A model generated the notes under the pieces. It ran no database searches. It saw nothing but the letters and a program-made list of their open reading frames with translations, and was not told the origin of the DNA. Source: a virus (taxonomy: Duplodnaviria > Caudoviricetes). From it: a stretch of 64,000 nt of DNA. The position numbers were made by a program, and so were the translations under genes. How positions within the stretch are numbered: the stretch's first letter is position 1; each line of letters begins with the position of its first letter. Shown piece by piece: positions 5,049-46,496 of the stretch. The stretch lies in IMG/VR virus record IMGVR_UViG_3300025867_000005. One strand, given 5' to 3'.

Positions 5049-5159
5049 GTTTTAGAATAGAAATGCTATTGACAGATTTCAACATTTTTGGTAAATTACA
5101 CGCATCTAAAGAACAAAAGGCTTGTAAGCCTTAAAGAACAAATAAAAGGAAAAACAGAT

Positions 5160-6383
5160 ATGGGTAAGACTCTCGGAATCAAGATGAGCAAGGCGGAACG
5201 TGAACAGGCTATTTCAAAGTTCATGGTTAAACTTCTAAAGGAAAAGGAAAAGGCGGTTGTCTTTAAGACCCCCCATGAGGTAGTGAAGTCAGACATTACT
5301 GTCAAAGCATTGCTTGACAAGACGGCGACAAGCATGTGCGGACTGCCGGAAATCAATCTGAACCCGATTTTCCAGCGGGGATTCGTTTGGGGTCAGGACA
5401 AAGAAGACGCTTTGTTGAACACGATCCTTGAAGGCGGGCAGATCCCTAGCCTTACATTCGGTAAAGTGCGGGACAAGAACCCCAGCAGTTTTAATCGAAT
5501 CTGTTGTGTCGATGGAGGTAATCGGATTCAGACTCTTTTGCGTTTCATCAATAACAAACGCGCGATTGCCGGTCTGTTCTGTCGAGACGAAGACGACGGA
5601 AGTGTTTCTGTTGATTCTACCAAGACCGTGAATCTGTATATCGGAAAGAAGTTTAAGGATCTTCCCGTTGACGTTCAAAACAAGATTCTGAACTATAAGT
5701 TTTCTTTTATCATTGAAGAGGTTGAGAAGGAAAATGATTTGACCAATATTTTCTTGCGGTTGAATTGCGGCGGTGTGGATATGGATTTCGGGCAGATTCT
5801 TATTGCCAAGTATCGGGAAACGGAATTCGGAAAGGCAATCTTGAATTTTATCGAAACAGAAACAGGGCGTGTTCTTCTTGGTCGCAAACGTGTCGGCAAA
5901 GTCAGCATTCCGAGTCTTTTCCTCCGGTGTTCTGGAATCGTCGCGACGGCAAGTGACTTTATGCGGTTTGTCGGGCGTGGCGGTGCCGATCAGTTTCTTG
6001 GAGAAAGTTCTGCTACTTCTTCTAAGGAAGCCGACAACAGCATGCTTCATTTCAAGAAGGCGGTGGAAGTGTTCAACAAGTATTTCTCAGATTTCGAGTT
6101 TTATCAGCACGTCTTTGAAAAGAATGGCGCTAAGAAACTTGTTACCTGTACTTTCTCAAAACAAGAGAAGGTTAAGACGGCCATTATTTCCGTTCTTTGC
6201 GGAATCGATGATCTTGATTTTGTTATCAAGAATCACATGGCCATCGGAGAAAATCTTGTTCAAAAGCTTCTTCCGTCTACGGTGGCAGATTCAATTCTGT
6301 TGAACCTCCTTACCGTTCAAACGACCATGCGCGGTCGCCGTGAACAGGCAATGATGCAAATCCGTGAATGCTTTGGAATTTAA
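5160..6383 (+). CDS. DUF262 (ParB-like/GmrS-type) domain protein
   Basis: FQRGFVW, VDGGNRIQT, IFLRLN.GG motifs. Confidence 0.8.
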   Translation: MGKTLGIKMSKAEREQAISKFMVKLLKEKEKAVVFKTPHEVVKSDITVKALLDKTATSMCGLPEINLNPIFQRGFVWGQDKEDALLNTILEGGQIPSLTFGKVRDKNPSSFNRICCVDGGNRIQTLLRFINNKRAIAGLFCRDEDDGSVSVDSTKTVNLYIGKKFKDLPVDVQNKILNYKFSFIIEEVEKENDLTNIFLRLNCGGVDMDFGQILIAKYRETEFGKAILNFIETETGRVLLGRKRVGKVSIPSLFLRCSGIVATASDFMRFVGRGGADQFLGESSATSSKEADNSMLHFKKAVEVFNKYFSDFEFYQHVFEKNGAKKLVTCTFSKQEKVKTAIISVLCGIDDLDFVIKNHMAIGENLVQKLLPSTVADSILLNLLTVQTTMRGRREQAMMQIRECFGI

Positions 6384-27697: not shown

Positions 27698-27767
27698 GCT
27701 GGATAAGTTGAAGTACCTTTACGTGGTTTCTGGTATAGGGTCGCTTGCGATTCTCGAAATCTTCAAC
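27698..27767 (+). ncRNA. HDV-like (theta) self-cleaving ribozyme
   Basis: P1 GCTGGA/TCTGGT, P2 GTTGAAG/CTTCAAC, P3 ACC/GGT, L3 TTTACGT, P4 hairpin, J4/2 CGAAAT; G1 directly after tRNA discriminator. Confidence 0.75.
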
Positions 27768-27788
27768 AGTGTTCTTTAAAATTAGAAT

Positions 27789-27892: not shown

Positions 27893-27924
27893 GTTGCGTC
27901 CCCTGCGGGCGCATGAATTGAAAC
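27893..27924 (+). CRISPR. solitary type I-C-like CRISPR repeat unit 1
   Basis: GTTGCGTCCCCTGCGGGCGCATGAATTGAAAC, 32 nt, hairpin plus ATTGAAAC end. Confidence 0.75.
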
Positions 27925-28034
27925 CGACGCAGACTAAGAATCTGTGGCTGCCGAAAGGCAGCGGTTAATTTTGACAATTGAATAAGTTCTTGAATTCACA
28001 CAGGTTCCCTTAAATGGATTCTTGTGTGAAATTT

Positions 28035-28109
28035 GCGGGTGTATCTCAAAGGCTAGAGACTCAGTTTACCAAACTGATTATGAGAGTTCAATTCTCTTCT
28101 CCCGCTCCA
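28035..28109 (+). tRNA. tRNA-Gly(ACC)
   Basis: TCAGT-TT-ACC-AA-ACTGA; U73; CCA. Confidence 0.85.
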
Positions 28110-28284
28110 GATGGGTCCAATCGCCCCATGATTGGTAGCCAGTTCACATGACTGGTTTGCAGCGATATCAGATGTATGGATTTCAGTAGGAGCCTCAGTG
28201 TGACCGCAATGAAATCCAGGCATTGAAGTATTGGAATCTGTTTTAGAAAAAATCATGGCAGTAACCTCTGTGTAAAAGGTAAAT

Positions 28285-28383
28285 AGTAGAATAGGCCAAA
28301 TTGGTAGGGCAGTTGACTGTTACTCAACCCAAGACAATCTTAACCGATTGTGTGTGCAGGTTCGAATCCTGCTTCTACTGCCA
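28285..28383 (+). tRNA. tRNA-Asn(GTT), very long variable arm
   Basis: cloverleaf, CCA. Confidence 0.88.
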
Positions 28384-28392
28384 TTTTAAGAA

Positions 28393-28469
28393 CGGCGCGT
28401 GGGTCAACTTGGTAGACCGCTTGATTCGGGTTCAAGAATTTGCTGGTTCAAATCCAGTCGCGCCGACCA
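28393..28469 (+). tRNA. tRNA-Pro(CGG)
   Basis: cloverleaf, CCA. Confidence 0.92.
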
Positions 28470-28872
28470 TGTTTGAACGGGTTTGAAGAAAATGAAAAAA
28501 ATCTTCAGTATCCCTATTGACAACATGCCGTGGATTTAGTAAGATGTGCGGCGTTGAAAGGACAAGTAGGGAAACCAAAAATCCTGACAACAAATGTTCT
28601 TTGAGAGATGAAATGATGGTTCTGAATAGGTCAGAAGGAAGCGATGCTATGACGGTGGCAACCCAATGGCTAAAACGCGGCCAGATACGGTTCGATTCCG
28701 TGATTCAGAAAAATCAGAAAAATTTTTCGAAGACCACTTGACAGACGGCGGCGGTTTTGCTAAAGTCTGCGGTGTTGAAGAGAAAAAGGCAAAAAGCGGT
28801 TTGACGCCGCGCCCTGCGGAAAAGTTCAGAAATGAACTGGGGTAAAAATTGACAACTGAATACGATTTGAAA

Positions 28873-29250
28873 AAGAGTCTCTGAAGACCGGCCTGAATGA
28901 AAAGCTCAGGAAATGGGAACAAATCCCGCCCGGAAAAAAGAGACTTATCGCCATGCCGCCTTAAAACGGTATGGACTGGTTGATGAATCCAAGATTCCGT
29001 TCCCTTAAAGGAATGTTGAGTCAAGTGAAGTCAATCAAGAATTTCTGAAAACAGGCGGTGTCTGCCTGACCCTATTTAATAGTAGGGTGAAAGGACTCGG
29101 GCGTTAGTTCTGTGTTCAATCCGTAGCGCTTCCTTGAGAAGTGTATAACGTGTTGAAAGGTGTTAATCTTAGAAATCAGATTCACAGGGTCTGATGGAGA
29201 TGTCGGTTGCCAGACTTGTGTGGCAATTAAAAAGCACCGCTGAACGCCAA
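28873..29250 (+). ncRNA. structured RNA candidate
   Basis: ORF-free, consecutive hairpins (AGTCTCT/AGAGACT, CCATGCCG/CGGTATGG, CAGGC/GCCTG, TTGCCA/TGGCAA). Confidence 0.45.
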
Positions 29251-29255
29251 ATCTT

Positions 29256-29344
29256 GAGGGTATGGAGTAATTGGTTAACTCGCCAGGTTTTCATCCTGGA
29301 AACGCACTGCGCTTGTGCGGGTTCGAATCCCGCTACCCTTGCCA
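29256..29344 (+). tRNA. tRNA-Glu(TTC), long variable region
   Basis: cloverleaf, CCA. Confidence 0.9.
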
Positions 29345-29581
29345 TCTTTCGATGCGAATATCGGACAGACAATTTTGAAAATCTTAAGAAGGTAGATTCA
29401 TGGTTCGACGGAATTGTGAATCCTGACCTAACAGGGATAGATTCTACGTGGTGTATGGTGCACACTGGCCCCCTCAAACGGGCCGGGGGACAACGTTCAA
29501 GTCGTTGACGGAAGAACAAGTTTGTGTCTGCAAAGACGCATAAGTGAAATCCCCTACAACTTTACCCCTGAACAGGGGAAT

Positions 29582-29657
29582 GCATCGGTAGTTCAATTGG
29601 TAGAACGATGGACTTCCACTCCGTAGGTTGCCGGTTCAAGCCCGGTCCGATGCTCCA
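29582..29657 (+). tRNA. tRNA-Gly(TCC)
   Basis: cloverleaf, CCA. Confidence 0.92.
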
Positions 29658-29658
29658 T

Positions 29659-29687
29659 GTTGCACAAGTTTGTGTATGAATTGAAAT
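29659..29687 (+). CRISPR. solitary I-C-like repeat unit 2 (shortened)
   Basis: GTTGCACAAGTTTGTGTATGAATTGAAAT. Confidence 0.6.
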
Positions 29688-29731
29688 AAATAGCGGTATA
29701 TCAGTTAGTAGATAGTTTCCATGATTTTTAT

Positions 29732-29807
29732 AGGAGTGTCGTATAGATGGTTTTTACGGATGTCTGATAAACATCTTAAGAGGGTTCGACTCCCTCCACT
29801 CCTACCA
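29732..29807 (+). tRNA. tRNA-Ile(GAT)
   Basis: cloverleaf, CCA. Confidence 0.92.
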
Positions 29808-29918
29808 TTTGTCGGAATTAGAACTGTCGTGAAATTCACATTGATCAGTGAAAAGTAATTCTGGAGCCGCATAGACAGTTATATACCCCCTCGGTCAAAG
29901 GGTACGACAATTAATTTT

Positions 29919-29994
29919 GGGGCTGTCGTCTAAGAGGAAGGACATAGGGCTGAAAATCCTACGGTGATGGTTTCGAGTACCTCTGGCCCCACCA
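29919..29994 (+). tRNA. tRNA-Phe(GAA)
   Basis: cloverleaf, CCA. Confidence 0.88.
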
Positions 29995-30092
29995 ATTTAA
30001 AGCTGAATAGCAACGTATCCAAGCCGTTGTGCCCGTCCCTTCTTTTGGAAGGTAATGATATGCGGTTGAAATCCGAAGCTTGGCCGATTTAC

Positions 30093-30212
30093 GGGGATGT
30101 GGCGCAATGGCAAACACGGGTTGTATCCTAACAGCTTAGGTCGTGCGGAACAGCCTGTTGTCTAAATCCAAATTACGACAACTTGTATGTTCGAATCCTG
30201 CCTTCCCCATCA
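30093..30212 (+). ncRNA. tRNA-like RNA with extra arms
   Basis: acceptor GGGGATG/CTTCCCC, D-loop-like TGGCAA, TTCGAAT; two extra helices. Confidence 0.5.
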
Positions 30213-30219
30213 TTTTTTA

Positions 30220-30383
30220 CGGGACGAAGTAAAACGGAAAGGTCTCGGATCAATTGATCCCGAACACATGTCAGACTGGTAAGCGCAACCGAATTGACTT
30301 CGGGTTTATTTTCCGATAAAAGACTATAACACCAAGGAATGGTGCCTTGGAAATATTTGGTTCGACTCCAAAAGTCCCGACCA
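30220..30383 (+). ncRNA. tRNA-like RNA with giant D-domain (type A)
   Basis: CGGGAC/GTCCCG-A-CCA, T arm TTTGG-TTCGACT-CCAAA, ~100-nt D insertion. Confidence 0.65.
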
Positions 30384-30495
30384 ACATCTGTTTCTAATTA
30401 ATTCAGAGAAAACATTGAACAGCCGTGGGCTCTGTTTAATCTCAATCGGTGAGTTTACCTAATGCGGTAAAAGTCCGTGGCCTCCTCCGTTTTAT

Positions 30496-30584
30496 TGATA
30501 GGTGCGGAGAATGGTATTCCAGTTGGCTGTTAACCAACCGTCCCGCAAGGGCAATCGCTGGTTCGAATCCAGTCCTATCAGCCA
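30496..30584 (+). tRNA. tRNA-Asn(GTT), long variable arm
   Basis: cloverleaf, CCA. Confidence 0.88.
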
Positions 30585-30592
30585 TTTTTTAT

Positions 30593-30725
30593 GCAGTAGG
30601 AGTAAAACGTAAAGTCGGTTCTGGAAACCTCTGGGTTCGTTCGATGTCGTGCCCAGTCAAGGAACTGATATAACACCTCCAAACGAAGGAGGAGATATCT
30701 GGTTAGACTCCAGTCTACTGTACCA
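30593..30725 (+). ncRNA. tRNA-like RNA with giant D-domain (type A)
   Basis: GCAGTAG/CTACTGT-A-CCA; shares AGTAAAACG and TATAACACC with 30220-30383. Confidence 0.65.
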
Positions 30726-30972
30726 TTGCTGCGACTTGTAGCATAAGAATTTCTGGCGTAGCTTAAGCCTTACCCAAACAAAACAGTCCCTATGTCAGGG
30801 ATATGATGTTTGTAAAACAAGGGATAGACCTTGGGTTTAAATTGAAAGGGTGTGGCCACATCTTTTTAAGGAAAACCCAAATAAGGGAACGTGTTTGAAA
30901 TCCCCTTGGGGAAAAAACAACTGCGATGATGCAGTAAGATGATAAGGAAGAAGAGATAGACGGTTTGCATTT

Positions 30973-31047
30973 GACATACTGGTGTAATCTGGTTAGCACG
31001 GCCCTGATAGAGGGGGAGGTCCGGGTTCAAATCCCTAGTGTCGCTAG
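30973..31047 (+). pseudogene. degenerate tRNA
   Basis: D arm TGGTGTAATCTGGTTAGCAC and GGGTTCAAATCCC, but poor anticodon arm and acceptor stem. Confidence 0.5.
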
Positions 31048-31398
31048 ATGCGGGCTGGAACAAGATTGAAATCCTCTGAAGGTACTTATCCGCCAGACCA
31101 ATTTTACCTGCTTCTCAGAAGTTATAGGGTTCTGTTTTGAAACATAAGAATATCAATTTGTTTAGCGGATATCCCTTATGAAAAGGAAGTCTTATGATTC
31201 TGAGGATATTCATTCCCATTTCGTTTATGGAGAGTGCTGGTGAAAGACGCATAGGAAAGGACAATTGGAAGGGATTCACGACTTGCGATATGCCTATGCG
31301 CCTTAAAGTGAATATGCGTTGTCATTCAGTCGGATGTCAATGTGAACTATTTACGGCTCATATCCTTTGGCGGATGCCTTAATCCGTGGAAGGTAAAT

Positions 31399-31472
31399 GG
31401 GGATGTATCTCAATTGGACAGAGTGTGTGGCTTCTAACCACAAGGTTGCGGGTTCGACTCCCGCTTTCCCCA
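31399..31472 (+). tRNA. tRNA-Arg(TCT), no encoded CCA
   Basis: TGTGG-CT-TCT-AA-CCACA. Confidence 0.9.
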
Positions 31473-31473
31473 C

Positions 31474-31543
31474 GGGTGATAAGTTGAAGTACCTTTACGT
31501 GGTTTCACCTATAGAGTCACTTGCGATTCTCGAAATCTTCAAC
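31474..31543 (+). ncRNA. HDV-like (theta) self-cleaving ribozyme
   Basis: P1 GGGTGA/TCACCT (covaries with copy at 27698), identical P2/P3/L3/J4-2. Confidence 0.8.
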
Positions 31544-32190
31544 AAAATGATATCTTGGATAATTTTTAAGAATTTCATAGCTTTCCCTTCTTTAAAGTGT
31601 TGGAAAGTTGAAACATCAATAATACAAAGTTCTATATTTCGTTCGTGACAAGCTTGGCATTTCCTGTTGTCATTGTTTTGAATTTTGGAAAGCTTATCTT
31701 CACCGTAGATAGGTTCGTAATGAAAGATACCATTTAGTTCGAAAGCAAGTTTCAAAGAAGGAATGTAGATATCTAGTTCTGAATTGATAGCGTCCTTCCT
31801 ATTGAAGTGGAATTCAAGATTTGGGTAAAGGATCGGCAACTTCGTTTCCAACCACCTTTCAAGCTTAGATATTTTTGTTCCTTTTGTTTTATGCATGTTA
31901 TTATAGGTTGCTGAACAAGATTGACTGCAAAAATGGTGTTTGGATTTCTTGATGCGCGAAATTTGTATCTTAAATTTTTTACTACATTGTTCGCAGTTGA
32001 TAAAAATTGGAGGATGAACAGATTGACCGAAACAGATAAGAGAACAATATTCAGAAGTTTCACCTTTTTTTGTATTTTGAATCCTGTGTTTTTCTTTGTA
32101 GAAAGTTTTACCGCAATGTTTACATTGTAACGGTAGTAGTTGACGTGATTTAGCTGCTTGGAATTCTTCTTCGGTAAAAAGTGGTATCAT
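31495..32190 (-). CDS. zinc-finger + Vsr-like homing endonuclease
   Basis: CxxC..FCSxSC repeats; ELDIYIPSLKLAFELNGIFHY. Confidence 0.8.
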   Translation of the reverse strand: MIPLFTEEEFQAAKSRQLLPLQCKHCGKTFYKEKHRIQNTKKGETSEYCSLICFGQSVHPPIFINCEQCSKKFKIQISRIKKSKHHFCSQSCSATYNNMHKTKGTKISKLERWLETKLPILYPNLEFHFNRKDAINSELDIYIPSLKLAFELNGIFHYEPIYGEDKLSKIQNNDNRKCQACHERNIELCIIDVSTFQHFKEGKAMKFLKIIQDIILLKISRIASDSIGETT

Positions 32191-32233
32191 AATCTATTCC
32201 TCCTACATATGGAATGAATATCGAAGAACAATT

Positions 32234-32256
32234 TTCGACTCTCGCCTTCCCCACCA
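32234..32256 (+). repeat. displaced duplicate of tRNA-Arg(TCT) 3' end
   Basis: TTCGACTCTCGCCTTCCCCACCA vs TTCGACTCCCGCTTTCCCCA at 31453-31472. Confidence 0.8.
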
Positions 32257-32536
32257 ATAACCGAGAAGGGTCAGCAAACTTCAAAATAATGAAGGCTGGA
32301 AAAAATAGACGGCATAGGACATGGTTCGATTCCCTTAGCCTTGGTAGGATGTCCGGATTGCTGGAACTTATGTGAAATCACCTTCTCGATGCTTTCAAAC
32401 ATCCCCTTTGAGTCAGAAAAATCAGCGGGATGTTTTCAAATAAGCCTTGTGACTTCTACAAATTTATCTGACAAGTTTCTGTTTGTCACAGGGAAGATCG
32501 GAAACTTCCGACACGGGGATGAAAAGCCCCGAATAT

Positions 32537-32613
32537 GCTTGTGTAGCGCAACTGGATAACGCATCTGGCTCTTACCCAGAGGATTGCGGGATCGTTCCCC
32601 GCCACAAGTACCA
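32537..32613 (+). tRNA. tRNA-Lys(CTT)
   Basis: cloverleaf, CCA. Confidence 0.9.
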
Positions 32614-32625
32614 TTTTTTTTAAGA

Positions 32626-32715
32626 GGGGGTTGTTCTTTACGGAGGTCTGTAAAACCTTTGCCGTTATTATGTAAAGCGGTTCGGCAGATAGTTCGACTC
32701 TATCAGCCCCCACCA
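32626..32715 (+). tRNA. tRNA-Tyr(GTA), D-arm-less
   Basis: acceptor, anticodon, long V and T arms, CCA; D arm replaced by 10-nt linker. Confidence 0.75.
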
Positions 32716-32829
32716 ATTTTGCCGAGTTCCTACCTGAAACCTGCCGCTTCAACAACCGGTTACAGAAAACCTTGATTTTCGCACGTCAAGGATTTTGTGA
32801 AGGGAAAGCGTTAGGGAAAACGGTGAATC

Positions 32830-32906
32830 GCCCCTGTAACTCAATTGGCTAGAGGCTCTGACTCGTAATCAGAAAGTTGTCAGATCATACCTGACCGGGG
32901 GCTCCA
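32830..32906 (+). tRNA. tRNA-Thr(CGT)
   Basis: cloverleaf, CCA. Confidence 0.9.
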
Positions 32907-32922
32907 TTTTTAGGATTAACAT

Positions 32923-32993
32923 TGCGAGAGGTTTAAATCACGCCGGACACATGTTCCGGAGTTGTCGGTATCCAATCCGTTTTCCCGCAAACA
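32923..32993 (+). pseudogene. degenerate tRNA(CAT)-like
   Basis: CCGGA-CA-CAT-GT-TCCGG arm, TGCG/CGCA ends, no D arm. Confidence 0.35.
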
Positions 32994-33003
32994 CTTTAGA
33001 ATG

Positions 33004-33078
33004 GGGGGTATAGCTCAATGGCTAGAGCTCCACGCTTACATCGTGGCTATAGGAGTTCGATTCTCTTTACCCCCACCA
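33004..33078 (+). tRNA. tRNA-Val(TAC)
   Basis: cloverleaf, CCA. Confidence 0.92.
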
Positions 33079-33396
33079 TGTTTAAGAATGCTTTAGAATG
33101 GGAGAAAGGTCGGGTAGAAAAGTCCCAAGTCTCACAGCCAATTTCGGTTAGATTCCTATTTGAATGTGCTTTTGAAAAAGTGATTCAGGATATGGATCTT
33201 TCCGACCAGTTTGACAGACAAGAGATGTTGAAAAACACGCCTATGGAATAGACCTACTACGAGAACGGCTATTATGTAGGAAGGAAGAAACCCCGTGAAG
33301 CAACATGGGGATAGTGCCTGGTGGCTTAACCACCATCCCCGTAAAGGGTATAACGTAGATAAGCGGCACCACTTGTTTTTGTCTGTCAGATTTTAT

Positions 33397-33519
33397 GGGG
33401 TCCCTGTTTTCCAAACACTGGTACTGATTAAACACTAATTATCAGGAAACGGCTTGCGGATGGTAACGCAGGTGTTCTACGGAACTAGAGAATGGTGAAA
33501 ATCCGTTCGGTCCCCACCA
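33397..33519 (+). ncRNA. CCA-ended tRNA-like RNA with enlarged D region
   Basis: GGGGTCC/GGTCCCC-A-CCA, T-like arm GAATGG/CCGTTC. Confidence 0.55.
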
Positions 33520-33540
33520 CTTTTAAGGTTTATTTTTCAT

Positions 33541-33615
33541 GCCTGCGTCGTCTACTGGCTAGGACATTAGATTCTCAATCTAATAAAGACGGATCGATAC
33601 CGTTCGCAGGTGCCA
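33541..33615 (+). tRNA. tRNA-Glu(CTC)
   Basis: cloverleaf, CCA. Confidence 0.9.
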
Positions 33616-33646
33616 GAGGGGGAAGATTTTGGTTTTGAAGACGAAT

Positions 33647-33736
33647 GAGAGTTTGGGTGAAATGAATTAGCCAACGGTCTGCAAAACCGTAAAACACAGA
33701 AATGTGATGAGGGTTTAAGTCCCTCAACTCTCTCCA
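33647..33736 (+). tRNA. tRNA-Cys(GCA), long variable arm
   Basis: cloverleaf, U73, CCA. Confidence 0.85.
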
Positions 33737-33746
33737 TTTTTTAGAT

Positions 33747-33821
33747 AGGGATATGATGTAACTAGTAGCATGAAAATCTCCAAAATTTTCTGTCCAGACG
33801 CGAATTCTGGTATCCCTGCCA
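33747..33821 (+). tRNA. tRNA-Trp(CCA)
   Basis: AAAAT-CT-CCA-AA-ATTTT; CCA end. Confidence 0.85.
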
Positions 33822-34113
33822 CACAAAGGAAACTACGACGCGCTACAAACTGAAGCCGAGAAGCCTAAGATGCGCTAAGTACGATCAAGGGGTGAGACGA
33901 TTCTTGATTTGCGCAAGAGATAGAAAAGTCAACGTACCCTAGTTTCCCTGATTTACTAAAAAAAGATTAGCGGAAAACTATCAAGAACCACTTGACACAG
34001 AAGCAGAGGTTTGATACAGTGTTTGTGTTTGAGAAATTCTAGGTGCTGTAAGCAAGTCCTTATTAGGACTGTGAAGCCCGAATAGACCTTTGAAAACTGA
34101 ATGTGATTTAAAT

Positions 34114-34193
34114 GGTGGAATGGCCGGAAACTCTTTTTCGGGGCTCCGATTTAATGGGGCTTAATGTTGGGGAAGATCCAATATCCACTACCA
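34114..34193 (+). ncRNA. degenerate CCA-ended tRNA-like RNA
   Basis: GGTGGA/TCCACT-A-CCA with three internal hairpins. Confidence 0.45.
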
Positions 34194-34230
34194 ATTTATG
34201 TCGATTTATGTTAATTTATGTCGATTTATT
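34194..34230 (+). repeat. 10-nt tandem repeat (~3.7 copies)
   Basis: ATTTATGTCG ATTTATGTTA ATTTATGTCG ATTTATT. Confidence 0.8.
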
Positions 34231-34309
34231 GCGGTAGGGATTAAGGTAAGGTTTACCTAATGAGGCTCATAACCTTGTAACCAGAGATCGTTCCTCTGCG
34301 CCGCATCCA
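34230..34309 (+). tRNA. tRNA-Met(CAT)
   Basis: TGAGG-CT-CAT-AA-CCTTG; CCA. Confidence 0.75.
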
Positions 34310-34316
34310 ATTTTAA

Positions 34317-34349
34317 GTTGTGCTATTCGAATAGCACATGAATTGAAAC
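34317..34349 (+). CRISPR. solitary I-C-like repeat unit 3
   Basis: GTTGTGCTATTCGAATAGCACATGAATTGAAAC. Confidence 0.7.
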
Positions 34350-34362
34350 ATCACGGGACAAT

Positions 34363-35366
34363 GGGAATATGGAATAACGGCTAGTTCACCTCACTTAACC
34401 ATTTCAATAGTTAAATATTCTGCCATTTTGTTTGATAATTATAATCCGTGTAGAGGAGACGTATGATACCACTTTACACCGAAGAAGAATTTAACAAGGC
34501 TAAATCAAGAGATTTACTTCCCAACCAATGTAAAAATTGCGGGAAGATTTTCTTTAGAGAAAAACACAATATAATGTTTTACATTAATAATGGAGGTGGA
34601 GATTTTTGTTCAATTTCTTGTTCTTTTAAATTCAATAACCCACTGATTGAAGTTGTTTGTCATACATGTGGAAAATCATTTAAGAAGAAAAAACTTGATG
34701 CAGATAAAGAAGAACGGCATTTTTGTAGTAGAAGTTGTGCTAATAAATATTCTTCAAATATCAATAAAGAACAAAAGACTTTAAACCAAAAGAAATGGGC
34801 AAATTCAGAAGAAGGAAAAAATTTTTTAACTAAAACAAGCAAATTGGCATGTATTAAAAGTATAGAAATTAGAAAACTTAAATGGAAAATGAATAAATGT
34901 CCGGTTTGTGGTAAAGAGTTTAGGGTAATGTTTAAACATAAGAAATACTGTTCGGCAACTTGTTATAATAAAATATCTGGTGGTATAAAAAGGGGGTCTA
35001 GTAGAGGTAAGCATGGTTGGTATAAGGGATACTGGTGTGATTCTTCTTGGGAACTTGCTTGGGTGATTTACAACCTTGATCATGGGATTAAGTTTGAAAG
35101 GAATCATCAAGGTTTTGAATACGAATTTGAAGGAAAGAAACATAAATACTATCCAGATTTCATTTTAGAAGATGGAACTTACGTTGAAATTAAATCTGTT
35201 ATGGATGAAAAGAACAAAGCTAAAATTGCTTCGTTCCCAACTTCAATTAAAGTTTTACAGCATAAAGAGATTAAAATATTCATAGACCATGCGATTAAAA
35301 TCTATGGTAAAAATTTCATCTCATTATATGAGGAAGGTCTGGGTTCGAATCCCGGTATTCTCGCCA
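34363..35366 (+). tRNA. tRNA (probably Asp) split at the anticodon by an endonuclease gene; halves 34363-34395 and 35327-35366
   Basis: GGGAATA/TATTCTC acceptor, CCTCA/TGAGG anticodon stem, G73, CCA. Confidence 0.75.
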
Positions 35367-35380
35367 ACGCCTTGACATAG
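34463..35380 (+). CDS. zinc-finger + TnsA-like PD-(D/E)xK homing endonuclease
   Basis: CxxC..FCS repeats; CDSSWE, YYPDF..YVEIK. Confidence 0.82.
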   Translation: MIPLYTEEEFNKAKSRDLLPNQCKNCGKIFFREKHNIMFYINNGGGDFCSISCSFKFNNPLIEVVCHTCGKSFKKKKLDADKEERHFCSRSCANKYSSNINKEQKTLNQKKWANSEEGKNFLTKTSKLACIKSIEIRKLKWKMNKCPVCGKEFRVMFKHKKYCSATCYNKISGGIKRGSSRGKHGWYKGYWCDSSWELAWVIYNLDHGIKFERNHQGFEYEFEGKKHKYYPDFILEDGTYVEIKSVMDEKNKAKIASFPTSIKVLQHKEIKIFIDHAIKIYGKNFISLYEEGLGSNPGILANALT

Positions 35381-35445
35381 CTTAAGCGTAAAGCCCCGAC
35401 ATTGTAGTCGGGAGATGAAGCCTAACGAACTTCTGACTCGGCCAA
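35369..35445 (+). pseudogene. degenerate tRNA-Thr(TGT)-like
   Basis: TAGCTTAAGCGTAAAGC D arm, CCCGAC/GTCGGG stem with TGT, poor T arm. Confidence 0.4.
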
Positions 35446-35588
35446 TTTGTCCCATGTCCTGAACAAAGGGATAACAGGACTTAATTACGTTTCTGCTGGC
35501 AGAGCCGATAAAGATCCACCCCGGAAGTGCAGAAAGTAAGGGACAAACTTTTTGATATCAGATTCTATTAATGTAACAAGGGTTTTAT

Positions 35589-36077
35589 ATGTCTAGGAAA
35601 AGAACATGGACTGATGAAGATTTTACTAAGGCGGCTTCTGTTTCTACTTCTGTTCGAGATCTTCTAAAAAAGATAGGATTACATCCAACTGGAGCAAACT
35701 ATAAAACGGTTTGGGCAACTGTCAGGCGTTTAGGAATAAATACCAAACATTGGGTCGGGAGTGGCCATCTTAAAGGTAAAACACATAATTGGTCTAAGTG
35801 TCTACCTTTCGAAGAGATTTTGATAAAAGATTCGCATTATAGAGGTAGTACTTCTCGGTTAAAATCTAGACTAATAAAAAACGGAAAGCTTTTAAATAAG
35901 TGTTATGAATGTGGACAAGAACCTTTATGGAAAGGAAAGATTTTAGTTCACGTTCTTGACCATATTAATGGCGACAATACAGATAATAGAATCGAAAACC
36001 TTAGATTGTTGTGTCCGAATTGTAATAGTCAAACAGAAACTTTTGCTGGGAAGAATAGAAAGTTTGTTCATTGTTAA
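35589..36077 (+). CDS. HNH endonuclease
   Basis: CYEC..LDHINGDNTDNRIENLRLLCPNC. Confidence 0.9.
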   Translation: MSRKRTWTDEDFTKAASVSTSVRDLLKKIGLHPTGANYKTVWATVRRLGINTKHWVGSGHLKGKTHNWSKCLPFEEILIKDSHYRGSTSRLKSRLIKNGKLLNKCYECGQEPLWKGKILVHVLDHINGDNTDNRIENLRLLCPNCNSQTETFAGKNRKFVHC

Positions 36078-36079
36078 TA

Positions 36080-36169
36080 CGTGCCGTATCCCAACTGGCT
36101 GGAGGAGCGGGACTCAAAATCCCGTGGACGGAAGTCCCACTGTGGGTTCGAATCCCACCGGCACGACCA
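36080..36169 (+). tRNA. tRNA-Leu(CAA)
   Basis: cloverleaf, CCA. Confidence 0.9.
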
Positions 36170-36176
36170 TTTTAAA

Positions 36177-36213
36177 CAGGGTGTAGCTCAATCTGGCTAG
36201 AGCGCGTGATTTT
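36177..36213 (+). pseudogene. 5' half of a tRNA (Pro-like)
   Basis: CAGGGTGTAGCTCAATCTGGCTAGAGCGCGTGATT, no 3' half. Confidence 0.55.
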
Positions 36214-36245
36214 TATCATTCCTAAATCTTAAGGGCAGTATTTAT

Positions 36246-36331
36246 CTGTGTGTAGTCCGTAATTTGGTAGCGGGTCGGCTTTGGGAGCCGGAGCGAAAGT
36301 CTTGTAGGTTCAAATCCTATCACACAGACCA
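36246..36331 (+). tRNA. tRNA-Pro(TGG)
   Basis: cloverleaf, extended V, CCA. Confidence 0.88.
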
Positions 36332-36400
36332 CTGTCGGCTATGGATAAGCTTCCTTCTATACTTTTATGGAAAAACCAGCTTTCCGCTTTCCGACACTTT

Positions 36401-36477
36401 CGAGGTATATTTCAATTGGTTAGAAGAACGGTCTCATAATCCGTTAGTTGAAGGTTCGACTCCTTCTACCTCGACCA
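36401..36477 (+). tRNA. tRNA-Met/Ile2(CAT)
   Basis: cloverleaf, CCA. Confidence 0.88.
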
Positions 36478-36543
36478 ATTTTCACTTCAACTTAGTAACG
36501 CCAAAAGAAGAAATGTACGGCTTCTTGAGAAGAAGTGAATTAT

Positions 36544-36620
36544 GCTCCTGTGGCGCAATTGGCAGTCGCGTCTGGCTAAGGACCAGATTGTTGGGGATTC
36601 GAATTCCTCCAGGAGCACCA
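36544..36620 (+). tRNA. tRNA-Leu(AAG), short variable arm
   Basis: TCTGG-CT-AAG-GA-CCAGA; CCA. Confidence 0.85.
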
Positions 36621-36745
36621 TTTTTATTACAGGTAGTGAGAAATAGGAATCTCCATAAACCAATGAATAATTTTTCAAGACCTGTTGACGGAAGTAATCC
36701 GTTGTGGTATTTTATCTTTATCGAAAGCAAGAAAGGGATAAAACC

Positions 36746-37147
36746 ATGACAGTTAAACAGCTAGTTAGTCGTTTCAAAAAGATCAAGAAACTTGATTTGT
36801 CGAAGATTGCTTTTGAACAGCACACAAAGAGTGAGCTCGATGTATGTTTCGTTATTGACGGAAGCATTAAACGTCTGAGGATTTTCTATGTTGGTGAATA
36901 TCAGTTTGATTGGTGGAAACCACAATTCGAAGAATTTGTGAAGACGGGTAAATTTGATTTTTCAACGTATCACGAAATCTATGGAAATGGGACTCACCCA
37001 TCAGATGTCGGTGTCGCGATTCGGGTTCCGATGATTCTTGAAAACGGTGTTTATGTTGAAGATTCGAAGAAAACGTTGGAATTGGTTGGTGAATATCGCA
37101 GAACGATTAACTATGAAGTCGGTATTCGTCGCATCGCAAAAAAGTAA
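36746..37147 (+). CDS. hypothetical protein
   Basis: promoter cassette plus RBS. Confidence 0.7.
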   Translation: MTVKQLVSRFKKIKKLDLSKIAFEQHTKSELDVCFVIDGSIKRLRIFYVGEYQFDWWKPQFEEFVKTGKFDFSTYHEIYGNGTHPSDVGVAIRVPMILENGVYVEDSKKTLELVGEYRRTINYEVGIRRIAKK

Positions 37148-37235
37148 AGAGAAACCTTGTGATAGCGGTTTCTGGAAACGTGGTCGTAGCCTAATTGGAT
37201 AGGCAACAGCTTGTTCTTTGAAAAGTTAATTTTAT

Positions 37236-37310
37236 GGGGGTATACTATAATGGCTATTACGCCACACCTGCACTGTGGCAATCTCGGTTCGATTCCGAGT
37301 ACCTCCACCA
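37236..37310 (+). tRNA. tRNA-Ala(TGC)
   Basis: G3:U70, CCA. Confidence 0.9.
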
Positions 37311-37338
37311 GTTTGGTTAACCCGTAAGGGTTTGTGAA

Positions 37339-37370
37339 GTTGCGCCATTTACGGGCGCATGAATTGAAAC
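37339..37370 (+). CRISPR. solitary I-C-like repeat unit 4
   Basis: GTTGCGCCATTTACGGGCGCATGAATTGAAAC, 32 nt. Confidence 0.75.
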
Positions 37371-37412
37371 ACGCGGCTCCATTCCTCTGTTACACTACGC
37401 GTATACACTAAT

Positions 37413-40356: not shown

Positions 40357-43300
40357 TGCGAGGAAAAGGGAGGCTAAAAAATCGTGACGAAAACTGTAAG
40401 GCTGACAGCGCCGCCCCGCTTTGGTACGCTTTGCCTATCAAAATATGCCGCAATGCGCTTGCGGTATCGAGTTTCAGGAATGCTTGAAGGCTTGACCGTC
40501 AAGGCAAGGGAGCGACATGAATCCGGTTGAACAGTATTTGAGTGACATGGGGGCGATTCGCTCGACTGGCGCGGGAACCGTGGAAACGTCCTACTACACC
40601 GCGCTTTCCACGCTCTTGAACGAGATCGGCAAGAAGCCAAGCCCGAAAGTCCGTTGCGTTATCCAGCTTCAGAACAAAGGCGCGGGCATGCCTGACGGCG
40701 GCATGTTCACCGCCGACCAGTTCAGAGGCAAAGCCGCCAAAGAGGACGCCGGGGCGAACCCGCTCAAAACCCTCCCGCCTTCCCGTGGCGTGATCGAAGT
40801 CAAATCCCCCGCCGAGGACATGGCGGACATCATCGAAAGCGAGCAAATCGCCCGCTATTGGGATCACTACGGCCTTGTTCTGGTCACGAATTACCGCGCT
40901 TTCACGCTGATCGGGCGCACGGCCACAGGTCACGCCGTGGAACTGGAAAGTTTCACGCTGGCCGCGACCGAGGCGGAATTCTGGAAACTGGCCGCGCACC
41001 CGCGCACCTGCCCCGCCGCCCTGCGCGAACGGTTCGCCGAATACCTATACCGCGCGATGACCCATAACGCCCCGCTGGCCTCGCCGCAGGACGTGGCCGC
41101 TATCCTCGCCTCCTATGCCCGTGACGCCAAGGCACGCATCGAACACGCCGACTTGCCCGCGCTGGCCGGATTGCGTGAAGCCCTGGAGCACGCCCTTGGT
41201 CTCAAATTCGAGGGCGATAAGGGCGAGCACTTCTTCCGCTCCACGCTGATTCAAACTCTCTTCTATGGCATTTTCTCAGCATGGGTGCTTTGGGCAAGGA
41301 AACGCAAGCCTGCCCCCGCCGCATCCGTCAAGGAAAAGAGCCTCAAATATGCGTTGAAAGAAACGGCAGCATCCTACCGCACGAACGCCAAGCAGTTTGA
41401 ATGGCGTTCAGCCGTGTGGCTCCTGCGCGTGCCGATGATCCGCGCACTATTCGGGCAGATTGCCACGCCGGAACGTCTCGGCCCCTTGGGGCTGGAAGAA
41501 GTCCTCGACTGGGCCGCGTCCGCCCTGAACCGCGTGGACGGCGACGCGTTCTTCACCGCCTTTGACGAGGGGCACGCCGTCCAGTACTTCTATGAGCCGT
41601 TCCTGCAAGAGTTTGACCCCGAGTTGCGCAAAGACCTTGGCGTATGGTACACGCCGACCGAGATCGTTGAATATCAGGTTGAGCGCGTGGATACCGTCCT
41701 GCGCGAAGAGCTGCACATTGCCGACGGGCTGGCCGACCCGCGCGTGATCGTCCTTGACCCGTGCTGCGGCACCGGGGCCTATGTGCGTGCTGTGCTGAAC
41801 CGCATCGCCAAGACGCTAGACGCCAAAGGCGGCGACGCGTTGAACGCGCAAGAAGTAAAAACCGCAGCGCTTGAACGCGTGTTTGGCTTCGAGATCCTGC
41901 CCGCGCCGTTCGTTATCGCCCATCTGCAAATCGGTCTGTTGCTGGAAACGCTCGGCGCACCGCTCATAGAGTCAAAAGAGCCCGACAAGAAGGCTGAACG
42001 CGTCGGCGTATACCTGACCAACTCCCTGACCGGCTGGGAGCCGCCCAAGGAGAAGCCCAAGCAACTGCTCCTCATGCCCGAACTCGAACAGGAGCGCGAC
42101 GCGGCCAACAACGTGAAACAGGGGAAGAAAATCATAGTCGTAATCGGCAACCCACCCTATAACGGTTTTGCGGGTGTCAGCCCCGAAGAGGAGAACGGGC
42201 TTGTAAATGCATATAAAGAAGGACTGAGTGATTGGGGCATAACCCGAAATTACCTCGATGACTTGTATGTGAGATTTTTCCGTTTGGCCGAAAAGCGTAT
42301 TACCGAGCACAGTGGTTTGGGAGTTGTGTCCTTCATTTCAAACTTCTCCTACCTCTCTGAACAGTCTTATGTGATTATGCGTCGTCGTTTCCTTGAAGAG
42401 TTCGACACACTCCGGTTCGACTGCCTTAACGGTGACAGTCGCGAGACTGGCAAACTGACACCGGATGGGAACCCCGACCCTTCAGTCTTCTCGACTCAAT
42501 GGAATCGTGAAGGTATTCGCGTTGGCACTGCCATCGGACTGATGGTCAAACACGATAATCGAAGTCAAAGCAAAGACAAGGCGAAAGTCTCGACTGAGCA
42601 TGGGACGGTTCGCTTCCGGCAATTCTGGGGAACGAAGAAACGCGAAGAACTACTTGCGAGCCTTGCATCCTCAAATTTTGATGCTCAATACGACATTTCA
42701 AGCCCCTCGCTTTCAAATCGTTGGAGTTTTCGACCGTCTGACGTTTCGGCCACATATTTGCAATGGTCCAACGTCGTTGATTTGAGTGCCGAGAAGCCTT
42801 TTCTTGGCTTAAACGAAAATAGAGGCGGCGATCTTCAGTGTATTGATAAGGATGCTTTACGGGCTAAGATTCAAGTCTACCTTGACCAAAATTTGTTGTG
42901 GGATGAATATGTTTCACCTTCTGCTGCGCTAACAAAGCCTGCCGCTGGGTTCAAACCTGAAAGTGTAAGGAAAAAAGTTCAGGCAGAAGAGCCTTTCTCG
43001 GAGGATCGCATTCAACGTTACTTGCGTAGACCATTCGATACTGTTTGGGCTTACATTTCGGACGTGAGCCCACTGTGGAATCGCTCTCGCCCCGAGTTGC
43101 GCACACACTTGGCGGGCAGCCAGAAGTGTTTCATAACACGTCCCTCATGTCCCGCTAATCCCGAGGGTATCCCAGTGCATATGACAAGGCTCGCAGGGGA
43201 GCAGGATTCAATACGTGGTCATGCGTACTATTTCCCTGTCAGACTGAAAAAGACCCAAAAGAAAAAAGTAGCCATGATGGGTGTGGAATCTGAAGAAGTG

Positions 43301-43633
43301 AAGCCCCGAAATGCGGAAGAGAAGTCTGACGAGTCCGCCAGAAGAGTATACCATAAACAGGAGGTACTCTTTGATGATGATGTTTCAACAGCCAACCTTT
43401 CCCCCGCCACGCTCTACTACCTCCCCGGCACATCCGGTTGGGACGCTCCCGCCGAACCGCTCCTCACATACGAACTCGTAAACGGAGAAATGACGATCAC
43501 GGGCGTAGACTCCTTCTTCACAGGCAATTCTTTGCCTATCCCGGAAAATCTTGCAGGCTACCCCGTTACCTCCATCGGCGACTACGCATTTTCCGACTGT
43601 GCATCCCTCACCTCTGTCAACATCCCCAGCGGC
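40357..43633 (+). mobile_element. GC-rich foreign (host-like) DNA insert
   Basis: abrupt GC and codon-usage shift; left edge truncates a tRNA-like 5' half (40333-40356). Confidence 0.7.
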
Positions 43634-43804
43634 GGATATAGTGACAATATGGGATGGCATAAAACTCAGAGTCATAATGCCCTATACAGGATTAAAAAGG
43701 GTTCATGGTACGGTAGTTGCCGGCCTCTTGTAGAATATCGTGGTGGCGTCAGTAGGAAACAAATGCTTGCGGATATCGAAAAGTTTTCAAAGAAAGGAAA
43801 TTAA
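40517..43804 (+). CDS. chimeric ORF: truncated type IIG/ISP-like RM enzyme (N6-adenine MTase) + BspA-type LRR fragment + phage C-terminus
   Basis: PDG..IEVK nuclease, WYTP, LDPCCGTG, GNPPY; then PVTSIGDYAFSDCASLTSVNIP. Confidence 0.8.
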   Translation: MNPVEQYLSDMGAIRSTGAGTVETSYYTALSTLLNEIGKKPSPKVRCVIQLQNKGAGMPDGGMFTADQFRGKAAKEDAGANPLKTLPPSRGVIEVKSPAEDMADIIESEQIARYWDHYGLVLVTNYRAFTLIGRTATGHAVELESFTLAATEAEFWKLAAHPRTCPAALRERFAEYLYRAMTHNAPLASPQDVAAILASYARDAKARIEHADLPALAGLREALEHALGLKFEGDKGEHFFRSTLIQTLFYGIFSAWVLWARKRKPAPAASVKEKSLKYALKETAASYRTNAKQFEWRSAVWLLRVPMIRALFGQIATPERLGPLGLEEVLDWAASALNRVDGDAFFTAFDEGHAVQYFYEPFLQEFDPELRKDLGVWYTPTEIVEYQVERVDTVLREELHIADGLADPRVIVLDPCCGTGAYVRAVLNRIAKTLDAKGGDALNAQEVKTAALERVFGFEILPAPFVIAHLQIGLLLETLGAPLIESKEPDKKAERVGVYLTNSLTGWEPPKEKPKQLLLMPELEQERDAANNVKQGKKIIVVIGNPPYNGFAGVSPEEENGLVNAYKEGLSDWGITRNYLDDLYVRFFRLAEKRITEHSGLGVVSFISNFSYLSEQSYVIMRRRFLEEFDTLRFDCLNGDSRETGKLTPDGNPDPSVFSTQWNREGIRVGTAIGLMVKHDNRSQSKDKAKVSTEHGTVRFRQFWGTKKREELLASLASSNFDAQYDISSPSLSNRWSFRPSDVSATYLQWSNVVDLSAEKPFLGLNENRGGDLQCIDKDALRAKIQVYLDQNLLWDEYVSPSAALTKPAAGFKPESVRKKVQAEEPFSEDRIQRYLRRPFDTVWAYISDVSPLWNRSRPELRTHLAGSQKCFITRPSCPANPEGIPVHMTRLAGEQDSIRGHAYYFPVRLKKTQKKKVAMMGVESEEVKPRNAEEKSDESARRVYHKQEVLFDDDVSTANLSPATLYYLPGTSGWDAPAEPLLTYELVNGEMTITGVDSFFTGNSLPIPENLAGYPVTSIGDYAFSDCASLTSVNIPSGGYSDNMGWHKTQSHNALYRIKKGSWYGSCRPLVEYRGGVSRKQMLADIEKFSKKGN

Positions 43805-44262: not shown

Positions 44263-44724
44263 ATGCGCAAGAACTTCATCAGGTGTGACGGCGGCAGACG
44301 GGCAGCTGGGTTTAAAGGCATAACATGCGATTGTGTATGCCGCAGTATCGCTATCGTTACCGGTCGGCCTTATCTTGAAGTCTACAATGAGCTGAAAGTC
44401 CTTTGCAAAAAAGAACGAAGGCTTAAAACGAAACGTCGGTCTAGTCATAGGACAGGGATTCATACCGGGCATAAATGGTTTCGAGATTGGATGGTTTCTA
44501 AAGGTTTCATTTGGGTTAAATCAAGAAGGGGAAAACTTAATTTCAGCCAAAATAATCTTCCGATGGGAAGACTAATCGTGTTTATTGCGGTTCATGTACA
44601 TTACGCAGCGGTTATCGACGGAATCGTGTATGACACATGGAATCAATATATGGATGATGATAACACCATCTCAGGATATTGGGAATTTGATAGAAAAGAC
44701 GTATGTAAAGGAGTTGATAAATGA
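44263..44724 (+). CDS. hypothetical protein (papain-like C..H..D pattern)
   Basis: CDCVCRSIA..HYAAVIDG..YDTW. Confidence 0.65.
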   Translation: MRKNFIRCDGGRRAAGFKGITCDCVCRSIAIVTGRPYLEVYNELKVLCKKERRLKTKRRSSHRTGIHTGHKWFRDWMVSKGFIWVKSRRGKLNFSQNNLPMGRLIVFIAVHVHYAAVIDGIVYDTWNQYMDDDNTISGYWEFDRKDVCKGVDK

Positions 44725-45581
44725 ACTTTTCAATTGTGCCCGTACAAGAACAAAAACAAGGAAGGACAGATTTCTATCTGATCGCGGTTTCTCAAATAAA
44801 CAGAAGAACGGCTTATCAGTATGTCCACGATCCTTTACACAAAAACAAACCTGAAGGAAGTGGTTGGGAATCTACCGATTCCGGATGGAGCAAAGACAAA
44901 GGAGATCCTTCAGGCGCGAAAATGACATTCAGCCCGGAAGTAAATGTGCCGGTCTTCAACAAAGAAAAGACAGAAGAGAATATTAAAAACATGTCAGTCC
45001 ACATTTCTTCTGCGATTAAAGAAGTGCTCGGTAAAGAAGTAGGACACCGGCTTTCTTCACGTAAATCGGGTAGATATATGGAAGCGGGTGTTATTTATAA
45101 GGAAGCAAGTTTTTCTGTAGACATCAAAGACATTAATGAAGAACAGGCGGAGAAGATAGCTAGGAAAATAGCGGACAAGATGCAACAAAGTTCAGTCCTT
45201 GTTTTCAACAATGACACAAGAAAGGCGAATCTCGTATTCGCTTCCGGAAGAGAAAATGAAGATTTTGAGTTGACGCCGCAAAGCAAAGAATTTTTCCTAA
45301 AGTCTACCGGGAATAACAAACAGACGATTGATAAAATAGACGAAAGTGTCAGAGCTGCAATGGAAGGCAAGGTAACGGGTTGGACAACAAGGAAAATAAA
45401 ACAGACTAGCATCAGAATCGGGAAAGACAGTTACATCAATACAAGTCATGCCGTTTCTCTTCATGGAATTGAAGAAGAAGATGCAGAAAAAATTGCCAAG
45501 CACTTGACAACAACCTTTGGAACTGATATCCTTTGTGTTGATTTGAAAAACAGATCGAAGAAGATAATCAAGAAAGGTTAA
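44721..45581 (+). CDS. hypothetical protein (paralog of 13425-14423)
   Basis: YVHDPLHKNKPEGSGWESTDSGWS; MQQSSVL. Confidence 0.72.
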   Translation: MNFSIVPVQEQKQGRTDFYLIAVSQINRRTAYQYVHDPLHKNKPEGSGWESTDSGWSKDKGDPSGAKMTFSPEVNVPVFNKEKTEENIKNMSVHISSAIKEVLGKEVGHRLSSRKSGRYMEAGVIYKEASFSVDIKDINEEQAEKIARKIADKMQQSSVLVFNNDTRKANLVFASGRENEDFELTPQSKEFFLKSTGNNKQTIDKIDESVRAAMEGKVTGWTTRKIKQTSIRIGKDSYINTSHAVSLHGIEEEDAEKIAKHLTTTFGTDILCVDLKNRSKKIIKKG

Positions 45582-46271: not shown

Positions 46272-46496
46272 ATCGAGTATCACGCGGACTCATGAATAGA
46301 AAAGGAAGATATGAACACAGAAATACGTAAAGCATATGTCGAAGGCTGTGTAGACGAAATGAGTTTCTTTAAGCGCTTGGAAAAAGCAATGAAGGAAGAT
46401 TCTCAACCAGAAGAATATGAATTGGGTACAGATATCCATGATTTAGATATCAATCCAGATACGCTTAAGTTTTGATTTGAAAGGAAACAAAACAGA

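Follow-up and report, generated by a model that had tools for sequence, protein, structure and literature searches.

Why would a phage carry lone repeats of the CRISPR type among its tRNA genes? The question is raised by a 64,000-nt stretch of phage DNA, hereafter the window, which corresponds to bases 164667-228666 of the 304,025-bp IMG/VR virus record IMGVR_UViG_3300025867_000005, rated complete by CheckV. The original prediction, made from the letters of the window, described four solitary mimics of type I-C CRISPR repeats dispersed through a tRNA operon, and their coordinates, plus-strand orientation and sequences all proved to be as stated (Table 1). All four are found within the tRNA cluster, in the orientation of the tRNAs, and have the same architecture: a GTTG start, a 6-8 bp hairpin and the 12-mer ATGAATTGAAAY at the end, the last 11 nt of which form a single-stranded tail below the hairpin. 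Their stems, said to differ in sequence and still to pair, do pair over 6-8 bp when anchored with the 11-nt single-stranded tail. We give about an even chance to the reading that the units are RNA anti-CRISPRs (Racr-type RNAs), which would be co-transcribed with the tRNAs, bound and cut by host Cas5c, and would compete with the CRISPR RNAs (crRNAs) of the host.

The presence of the units is not a matter of chance similarity. Eleven copies of the 12-mer ATGAATTGAAAY are present in the genome of 304 kb, always on the plus strand, against a chance expectation of ~0.07 occurrences; they belong to the four units and the seven repeats of an orphan array. A covariance model trained on all repeat copies was applied to the window plus a further 57 kb of the phage genome; it retrieved only the four units in the former and only the array in the latter. 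The orphan array (G000:256036-256463; L009:10037-10464) contains seven repeats, the last two with mutations, and six spacers of 33-35 nt. It lies 54 kb downstream of unit 4, and both of its repeat ends are the same as those of the units. The claim that cas genes and a regular array are absent therefore holds for the window, although the seven-repeat array, which lies outside it in the same genome and so could not be seen, had been missed. A six-frame Pfam search detected no Cas5, Cas7 or Cas8c in the phage, and tblastn with seven Cas proteins of an Oscillospirales I-C operon (L137) found nothing similar in the phage genome. Thus, any Cas-dependent role of the units must use host proteins.

The units are indeed solitary, as had been proposed: no partial second repeat is present within 120 nt on either side of any of them, local alignments being no better than those of shuffled sequences. 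A mini-CRISPR array is defined by at least two repeats at spacer distance, and the units are 1.7-4.7 kb apart. They are instead solitary repeat units, being intergenic and borne by a mobile element (a CheckV-complete virus record) without cas genes. A relaxed genome scan for a hairpin plus handle yielded 57 matches beyond the 11 perfect ones, compared to 36-45 in shuffles, and none of them has a GTTG start or fits the model. Rfam searches of the window, the cluster and the array returned tRNAs only and no CRISPR repeat family. An acceptor-like stem, in which the 5' ends of units 1 and 4 would pair with downstream bases, was rejected, since it is absent from units 2 and 3 and incompatible with the repeat hairpin. 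The phage recurs as ~303-kb contigs in at least 10 assemblies, and the four units are identical across the three independent assemblies inspected.

The predicted assignment of the repeats to type I-C follows from genomic context and not from resemblance alone. In an Oscillospirales genome (L137), an array whose repeats have the same GTTG and ATGAATTGAAAC ends adjoins a complete, canonical type I-C operon, cas3-cas5-cas8c-cas7-cas4-cas1-cas2; the stem sequences differ. The units also have the general features of I-C repeats, namely, a length of 29-33 nt, an internal palindrome and an 11-nt single-stranded tail ending in ATTGAAAC/T. When one genome per prokaryotic species was scanned for the repeat ends, regular arrays were found only in Clostridia, mostly Oscillospirales, including the genera Anaerotruncus, Provencibacterium and Caproicibacter as well as unnamed bins. 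Scans of IMG/VR for the same ends gave chance matches only, except for an unrelated array (L161). The phage stems are AT-rich and differ from the bacterial repeats with the same ends, which are GC-rich. In two other Oscillospirales genomes, a single I-C repeat is followed by a degenerate repeat at spacer distance, apart from the main arrays (L138:1369-1400 and L150:5097-5128); these pairs may be mini-arrays or regulatory crRNA-like genes.

Conservation of the units was assessed in three lineages, of which our phage is lineage A. Lineage B is known from fragments within the metagenomic bin G001, which bears the label Paludibacteraceae, and from the metagenome contigs L147, L168-L178, L179-L182 and L197-L200, and lineage C from the short contigs L183 and L193. 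Lineages B and C were found together in one sample. No relatives of the cluster are present among GenBank phages, and an Hsp20-based search of IMG/VR also returned none. Within its tRNA cluster lineage B carries six units, with one more located elsewhere, and it also has a three-repeat mini-array at the position corresponding to our orphan array. Unit 2 differs from its lineage B ortholog by a G-U to G-C stem change and unit 3 by a symmetric 2-bp insertion affecting both stem strands, and in unit b5 a T-A pair of lineage B corresponds to a C-G pair in lineage C. At least nine different stems keep the hairpin. Across all 23 distinct sequences the stem persists with varied pairs, a single stem position showing G-C, C-G, A-T and T-A. 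The anchored stem has a mean length of 5.4 bp in 12 phage units versus 1.7 bp in shuffles, none of 5000 shuffles being as good. In the covariance-model alignment, 91.5% of pair cells are paired, five of the seven pairs have changes on both sides and 0/500 shuffles reach the observed score; this alignment was fitted to the structure, which favours the pairing score, but the alignment-free stem count agrees. Sliding the register of the alignment brings pairing down to 32-75%. The handle is kept at 12/12 positions in 10 of the 12 phage solitary units, the other two ending in A or G instead of C/T, and is lost in decayed copies. These comparisons support the view that selection maintains both the hairpin and the handle.

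The covariance model and the search for related phages, both suggested along with the original prediction, thus bear out a conserved hairpin and handle in sister lineages, but they also uncover a turnover of units that had been overlooked. The module of tRNA-Lys, unit 1 and tRNA-Gly is wholly absent from lineage B at that place. At unit 4, the reconstructed ancestral order was tRNA-Ala, unit, tRNA-Thr and tRNA-Arg. Our phage has lost the tRNA-Thr body from this site, whereas lineage B has kept an intact tRNA-Thr and lost the 5' half of the unit; what remains is a decayed 3' part with a decayed handle, identical in 15 of its first 17 bases. At the sites of lineage B units b1 and b5 and of the out-of-cluster unit, only doubtful remnants are found in our phage. 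A lone repeat of lineage B with a GTCG start is located outside the tRNA cluster (L168:1480-1512), and the homologous place in our phage (G000, ~283.8 kb, minus strand) has a decayed trace matching in 9/17 bases. The possible decayed copy behind tRNA-Gln(ttg) is not matched by the covariance model and has no counterpart in lineage B. The handle is also found as two partial copies (L183:1249-1266) immediately upstream of an intact unit of lineage C. A perfect or near-perfect handle in intact units and its rapid loss in decayed ones fit elements of which each is dispensable but is selected as long as it functions.

What the units conserve is the hairpin, the precise spacing between it and the tail, and the sequence of the tail; recognition and handle binding by Cas5c (Cas5d) would presumably require these three features. 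In addition, a lone I-C repeat, RacrIC1, inhibits type I-C interference (PMC10651486). Given this precedent and the conserved hairpin, spacing and tail, we read the units as Racr-type RNAs. The presence, conservation and context of the units are the solid ground of this reading; every mechanistic step is one that we infer. The units would be transcribed along with the phage tRNAs and released from the adjoining tRNAs by RNase P and tRNA 3' processing. Host Cas5c would then recognize the hairpin and the 11-nt tail and cleave at the hairpin base, and the handle-bearing product could nucleate assembly of Cas5c and Cas7 on RNA of phage origin. In the type I-C Cascade, the 5' handle is gripped by Cas5c together with a single Cas7, seven Cas7 subunits cover the remainder, and there is no Cas6 to hold a 3' hairpin (PMC7684278). 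The units and the six-spacer array of the phage would together displace host crRNAs from the host I-C proteins, acting as a competitive anti-CRISPR made in bulk from the tRNA operon. Several observations weigh against this proposal. The array of the phage needs a working host Cascade and would be undercut by a pure blocker; for a phage with a real array, displacing host crRNAs is a better fit than blocking the system. Since units come and go between lineages, none of the copies is essential by itself. The units have no dedicated promoter immediately upstream, unlike the described Racrs. Finally, neither the species-representative genomes nor a further set of 401 Oscillospirales yielded an array with the GCGC-type stem of the phage, the second set giving two chance matches.

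Table 1. Repeat units and other features of the tRNA cluster (positions refer to the window)
Feature	Position	Strand	Description	Neighbouring elements
Solitary repeat unit 1	27893..27924	+	32 nt, 7-bp stem; covariance model 45.3 bits	16 nt past tRNA-Lys(ttt); tRNA at 110 nt downstream
Solitary repeat unit 2	29659..29687	+	29 nt, 6-bp stem; covariance-model match	1 nt past tRNA-Gly(tcc); tRNA remnant at ~3 nt and complete tRNA at 44 nt downstream
Solitary repeat unit 3	34317..34349	+	33 nt, 8-bp stem; covariance-model match	Interrupted tRNA at 13 nt downstream
Solitary repeat unit 4	37339..37370	+	32 nt, 6-bp stem; covariance model 46.6 bits	28 nt past tRNA-Ala(tgc); tRNA-Thr remnant at 0 nt and tRNA-Arg at 42 nt downstream
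Possible decayed copy	46272..46303	+	65% identity to unit 1; weak hairpin; doubtful	Directly after tRNA-Gln(ttg)
Terminator-like hairpin and T-run	27947..27972	+	Consensus scan only	22 nt past unit 1
tRNA-Ile(gat), 5' half (to anticodon loop)	29691..29731	+	Alignment with lineage B	Directly after unit 2
Interrupted tRNA	34363..35366	+	928-nt intervening sequence in anticodon loop; ARAGORN, introns allowed	Begins 13 nt past unit 3
TTC and stretch matching the sequence after sister unit b4	35491..35528	+	No unit here in our phage	
tRNA-Thr(cgt), last 11 nt (3' acceptor strand and CCA)	37371..37381	+	Rest deleted; alignment with lineage B	Fused to unit 4

The placement of each unit 1-28 nt behind the CCA of a tRNA, as originally described, holds for units 1, 2 and 4, and unit 3 follows at 7 nt an element that is only tRNA-like, being called by neither ARAGORN nor Rfam. 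The segments behind the units are tRNA remnants of 3-110 nt and not spacers of regular length. The terminator-like bases after unit 1 also fit a tRNA-Leu-like remnant, of which they would form the anticodon arm and the long variable arm. Behind unit 2, the tRNA-Ile half is followed by a complete tRNA-Ile(gat) at 29732-29807. One lineage B contig has an intact first tRNA-Ile, which begins 2 nt beyond the unit, whereas another contig of this lineage resembles our phage. The interrupted tRNA after unit 3 encloses an open reading frame (34463-35380) for a 305-aa endonuclease-like protein with weak matches to Phage_endo_I (endonuclease I) and to a zinc finger; both this tRNA and its insert are absent from lineage B. 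Release of units by tRNA processing fits the spacing in lineage B, where one unit is separated by 1 nt from the preceding tRNA-Gly and by 2 nt from the following tRNA-Ile, so that tRNA end-processing alone would free an RNA little longer than the repeat. Promoter-like and terminator-like sites are present in the cluster but not enriched over shuffles, and it is thus from spacing that we infer co-transcription of the units with the tRNAs.

Placement between tRNAs would also suit units that serve as processing sites, at which host Cas5c is used by the phage to cut its tRNA polycistron. This alternative, raised in the original prediction, finds no support and we consider it highly improbable: tRNAs already come apart through RNase P and 3' processing, a unit is missing from most of the cluster's tRNA junctions, cleavage at the hairpin base would burden the upstream tRNA with a structured 3' trailer, and the phage would come to rely on an accessory host system. 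Similarly, there is very little probability that the units are regulatory crRNA-like RNAs (Cracr type), in which the stretch behind the repeat would show a partial match to a toxin gene or to a cas promoter of the host, even though phage Cracrs against I-C systems have been reported (10.1101/2024.10.29.618823). A Cracr consists of a pseudo-repeat, a short pseudo-spacer and another pseudo-repeat, with a match to a cas or toxin promoter, and the units differ from it in having no second pseudo-repeat nearby. The downstream segments are tRNA remnants and match none of the I-C loci compared. Another possibility is that the units are relics without present function, acquired from arrays of the host when a spacer recombined with its protospacer or through another illegitimate event, and at most once useful by erasing a protospacer-adjacent motif (PAM). 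Turnover and decayed copies in both lineages, and a cluster rich in tRNA fragments and endonuclease genes, are consistent with such an origin. Yet relics would not be expected to keep a perfect 12-nt handle and, through compensatory changes in orthologs, a paired stem. All copies are on one strand, and AT-rich stems, compared to the GC-rich bacterial repeats with the same ends, suggest long residence in the phage under structural selection. We therefore judge the relic explanation to be rather improbable.

The alleles without a unit bear on a further alternative, namely, that the units are guide-only elements. After the Cas5c cut, ~35 nt behind a unit would be loaded as a spacer, host Cascade-Cas3 would attack unit-less siblings, which retain a PAM, and repair from the carrier could copy the unit in the manner of homing. 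The repeat end, by occupying the PAM position, might shield the carrier, and the unit would be a self-protecting selfish element, a natural analogue of a guide-only gene drive. Both the guide-only role and this self-protection seem to us unlikely, yet they are suggested by a specific match. Unit b4 of lineage B, which together with its downstream 40 nt spans L181:3890-3965, is followed by 36 nt that match positions 35494-35525 of our phage in 31 of 32 aligned bases, directly behind TTC, the canonical I-C PAM (10.1101/2022.06.15.496202; PMC8406640). Both flanks of this site are homologous, and 17 nt ending in TTC in our phage replace the 34-nt unit. Two other unit-less alleles have CTC and TCC, which were reported as functional I-C PAMs (10.1101/137067), and the fourth has none; a functional PAM is thus found in three of four sites (P ~0.002-0.009, derived from trinucleotide frequencies in the cluster; background 8-14%). 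The sufficiency of the 5' handle in the I-C Cascade, with no holder of the 3' hairpin (PMC7684278), and the co-occurrence of lineages B and C in one sample agree with a guide function. However, the PAM test is post hoc and covers four events only, poor quality marks two of the three matches next to a PAM (5 mismatches in 34; 14 contiguous bases only), and homology alone produces downstream matches. PAMs at unit-less alleles are also expected if repeats were captured as relics at former protospacers, although such capture alone would not account for compensatory stem evolution. Moreover, the sequence between a unit and the next tRNA is 3-110 nt long, and RNase P would sever the handle from an adjacent tRNA. 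The guides of our units 1-3 gave no match. Array spacers of lineages A and B likewise match none of the available sibling sequence, and those of the orphan array have no target in GenBank phages.

Other features of the region were recorded as well. A 67-nt element is present in two copies (27702-27768 and 31478-31544) that are 93% identical, each starting 2-4 nt after a tRNA (Ser-cga and Arg-tct, respectively); the second copy overlaps a weak Rfam match to YrlA, a Y RNA-like family (19.8 bits, E 2.9). Near the cluster, genes of defence or counter-defence at 40517-43804, 5088-6383 and 44721-45581 encode a methyltransferase of 1095 aa whose C-terminus is Type ISP-like, a GmrSD-like nuclease, and an S-adenosylmethionine lyase (PF23780, by precomputed matches on L194).

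Lone phage repeats are known as RNA anti-CRISPRs and have been portrayed as small genes, each under a promoter of its own. In the present huge phage, which brings a guide array and depends wholly on host Cas proteins, they make up a diversified, multi-copy family built into a tRNA operon. If the units are Racr-type RNAs, tRNA clusters of huge phages would double as factories for RNAs that take over the host CRISPR machinery, and searches confined to promoter-proximal units may miss such repeats. Type I-C, in which Cascade assembles on the 5' handle alone, would then be a direct test case for a single repeat acting as a decoy, a guide or both, and the PAM-flanked match in a sister phage provides a concrete sequence pair for this question. 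If the units are guide-only elements, the tRNA cluster would supply strong transcription plus processing. In polycistronic tRNA-guide RNA arrays, a laboratory design for Cas9 guides, tRNA processing enzymes free the CRISPR RNA set between tRNAs. By analogy, the units would be a natural type I-C counterpart of these engineered arrays.

Among known systems, RacrIC1 and the solitary repeat units of viruses (Camara-Wilpert et al. 2023, PMC10651486; Faure et al. 2019 as cited there) resemble ours in being lone intergenic repeats of phages without cas genes. RacrIC1 is also of the same subtype, I-C, in which the anti-CRISPR activity of a lone repeat was shown (PMC10651486). Unlike these, the present units occur in 4-7 diversified copies per genome, between tRNA genes and not behind their own promoter or an acr gene, and alongside an orphan array of the same repeat type. 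Compact orphan arrays of huge phages (Al-Shayeb et al. 2020, PMC7162821) likewise have bacteria-like repeats and no cas genes, and are presumed to use host Cas proteins; our array has seven repeats, the median in that survey being six. In our case, however, the finding is not the array itself but single repeats scattered 54-64 kb from it. Viral Cracr RNAs and arrays (Liu et al., bioRxiv 10.1101/2024.10.29.618823) are phage RNAs with CRISPR repeat features that compete for Cas proteins, as our units would, and include I-C examples. By contrast to Cracrs, which are repeat-spacer-repeat elements with a spacer matching a cas or toxin promoter, each of our units is one repeat and has no such match. 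The papers on Racrs (PMC10651486) and Cracrs (10.1101/2024.10.29.618823) never mention tRNA, and full-text literature searches retrieved nothing on lone repeats placed within the tRNA clusters of phages. New with respect to these papers are the placement in a tRNA operon, the multi-copy diversified family, its coexistence with an orphan array, and its conservation with turnover across sister phages.

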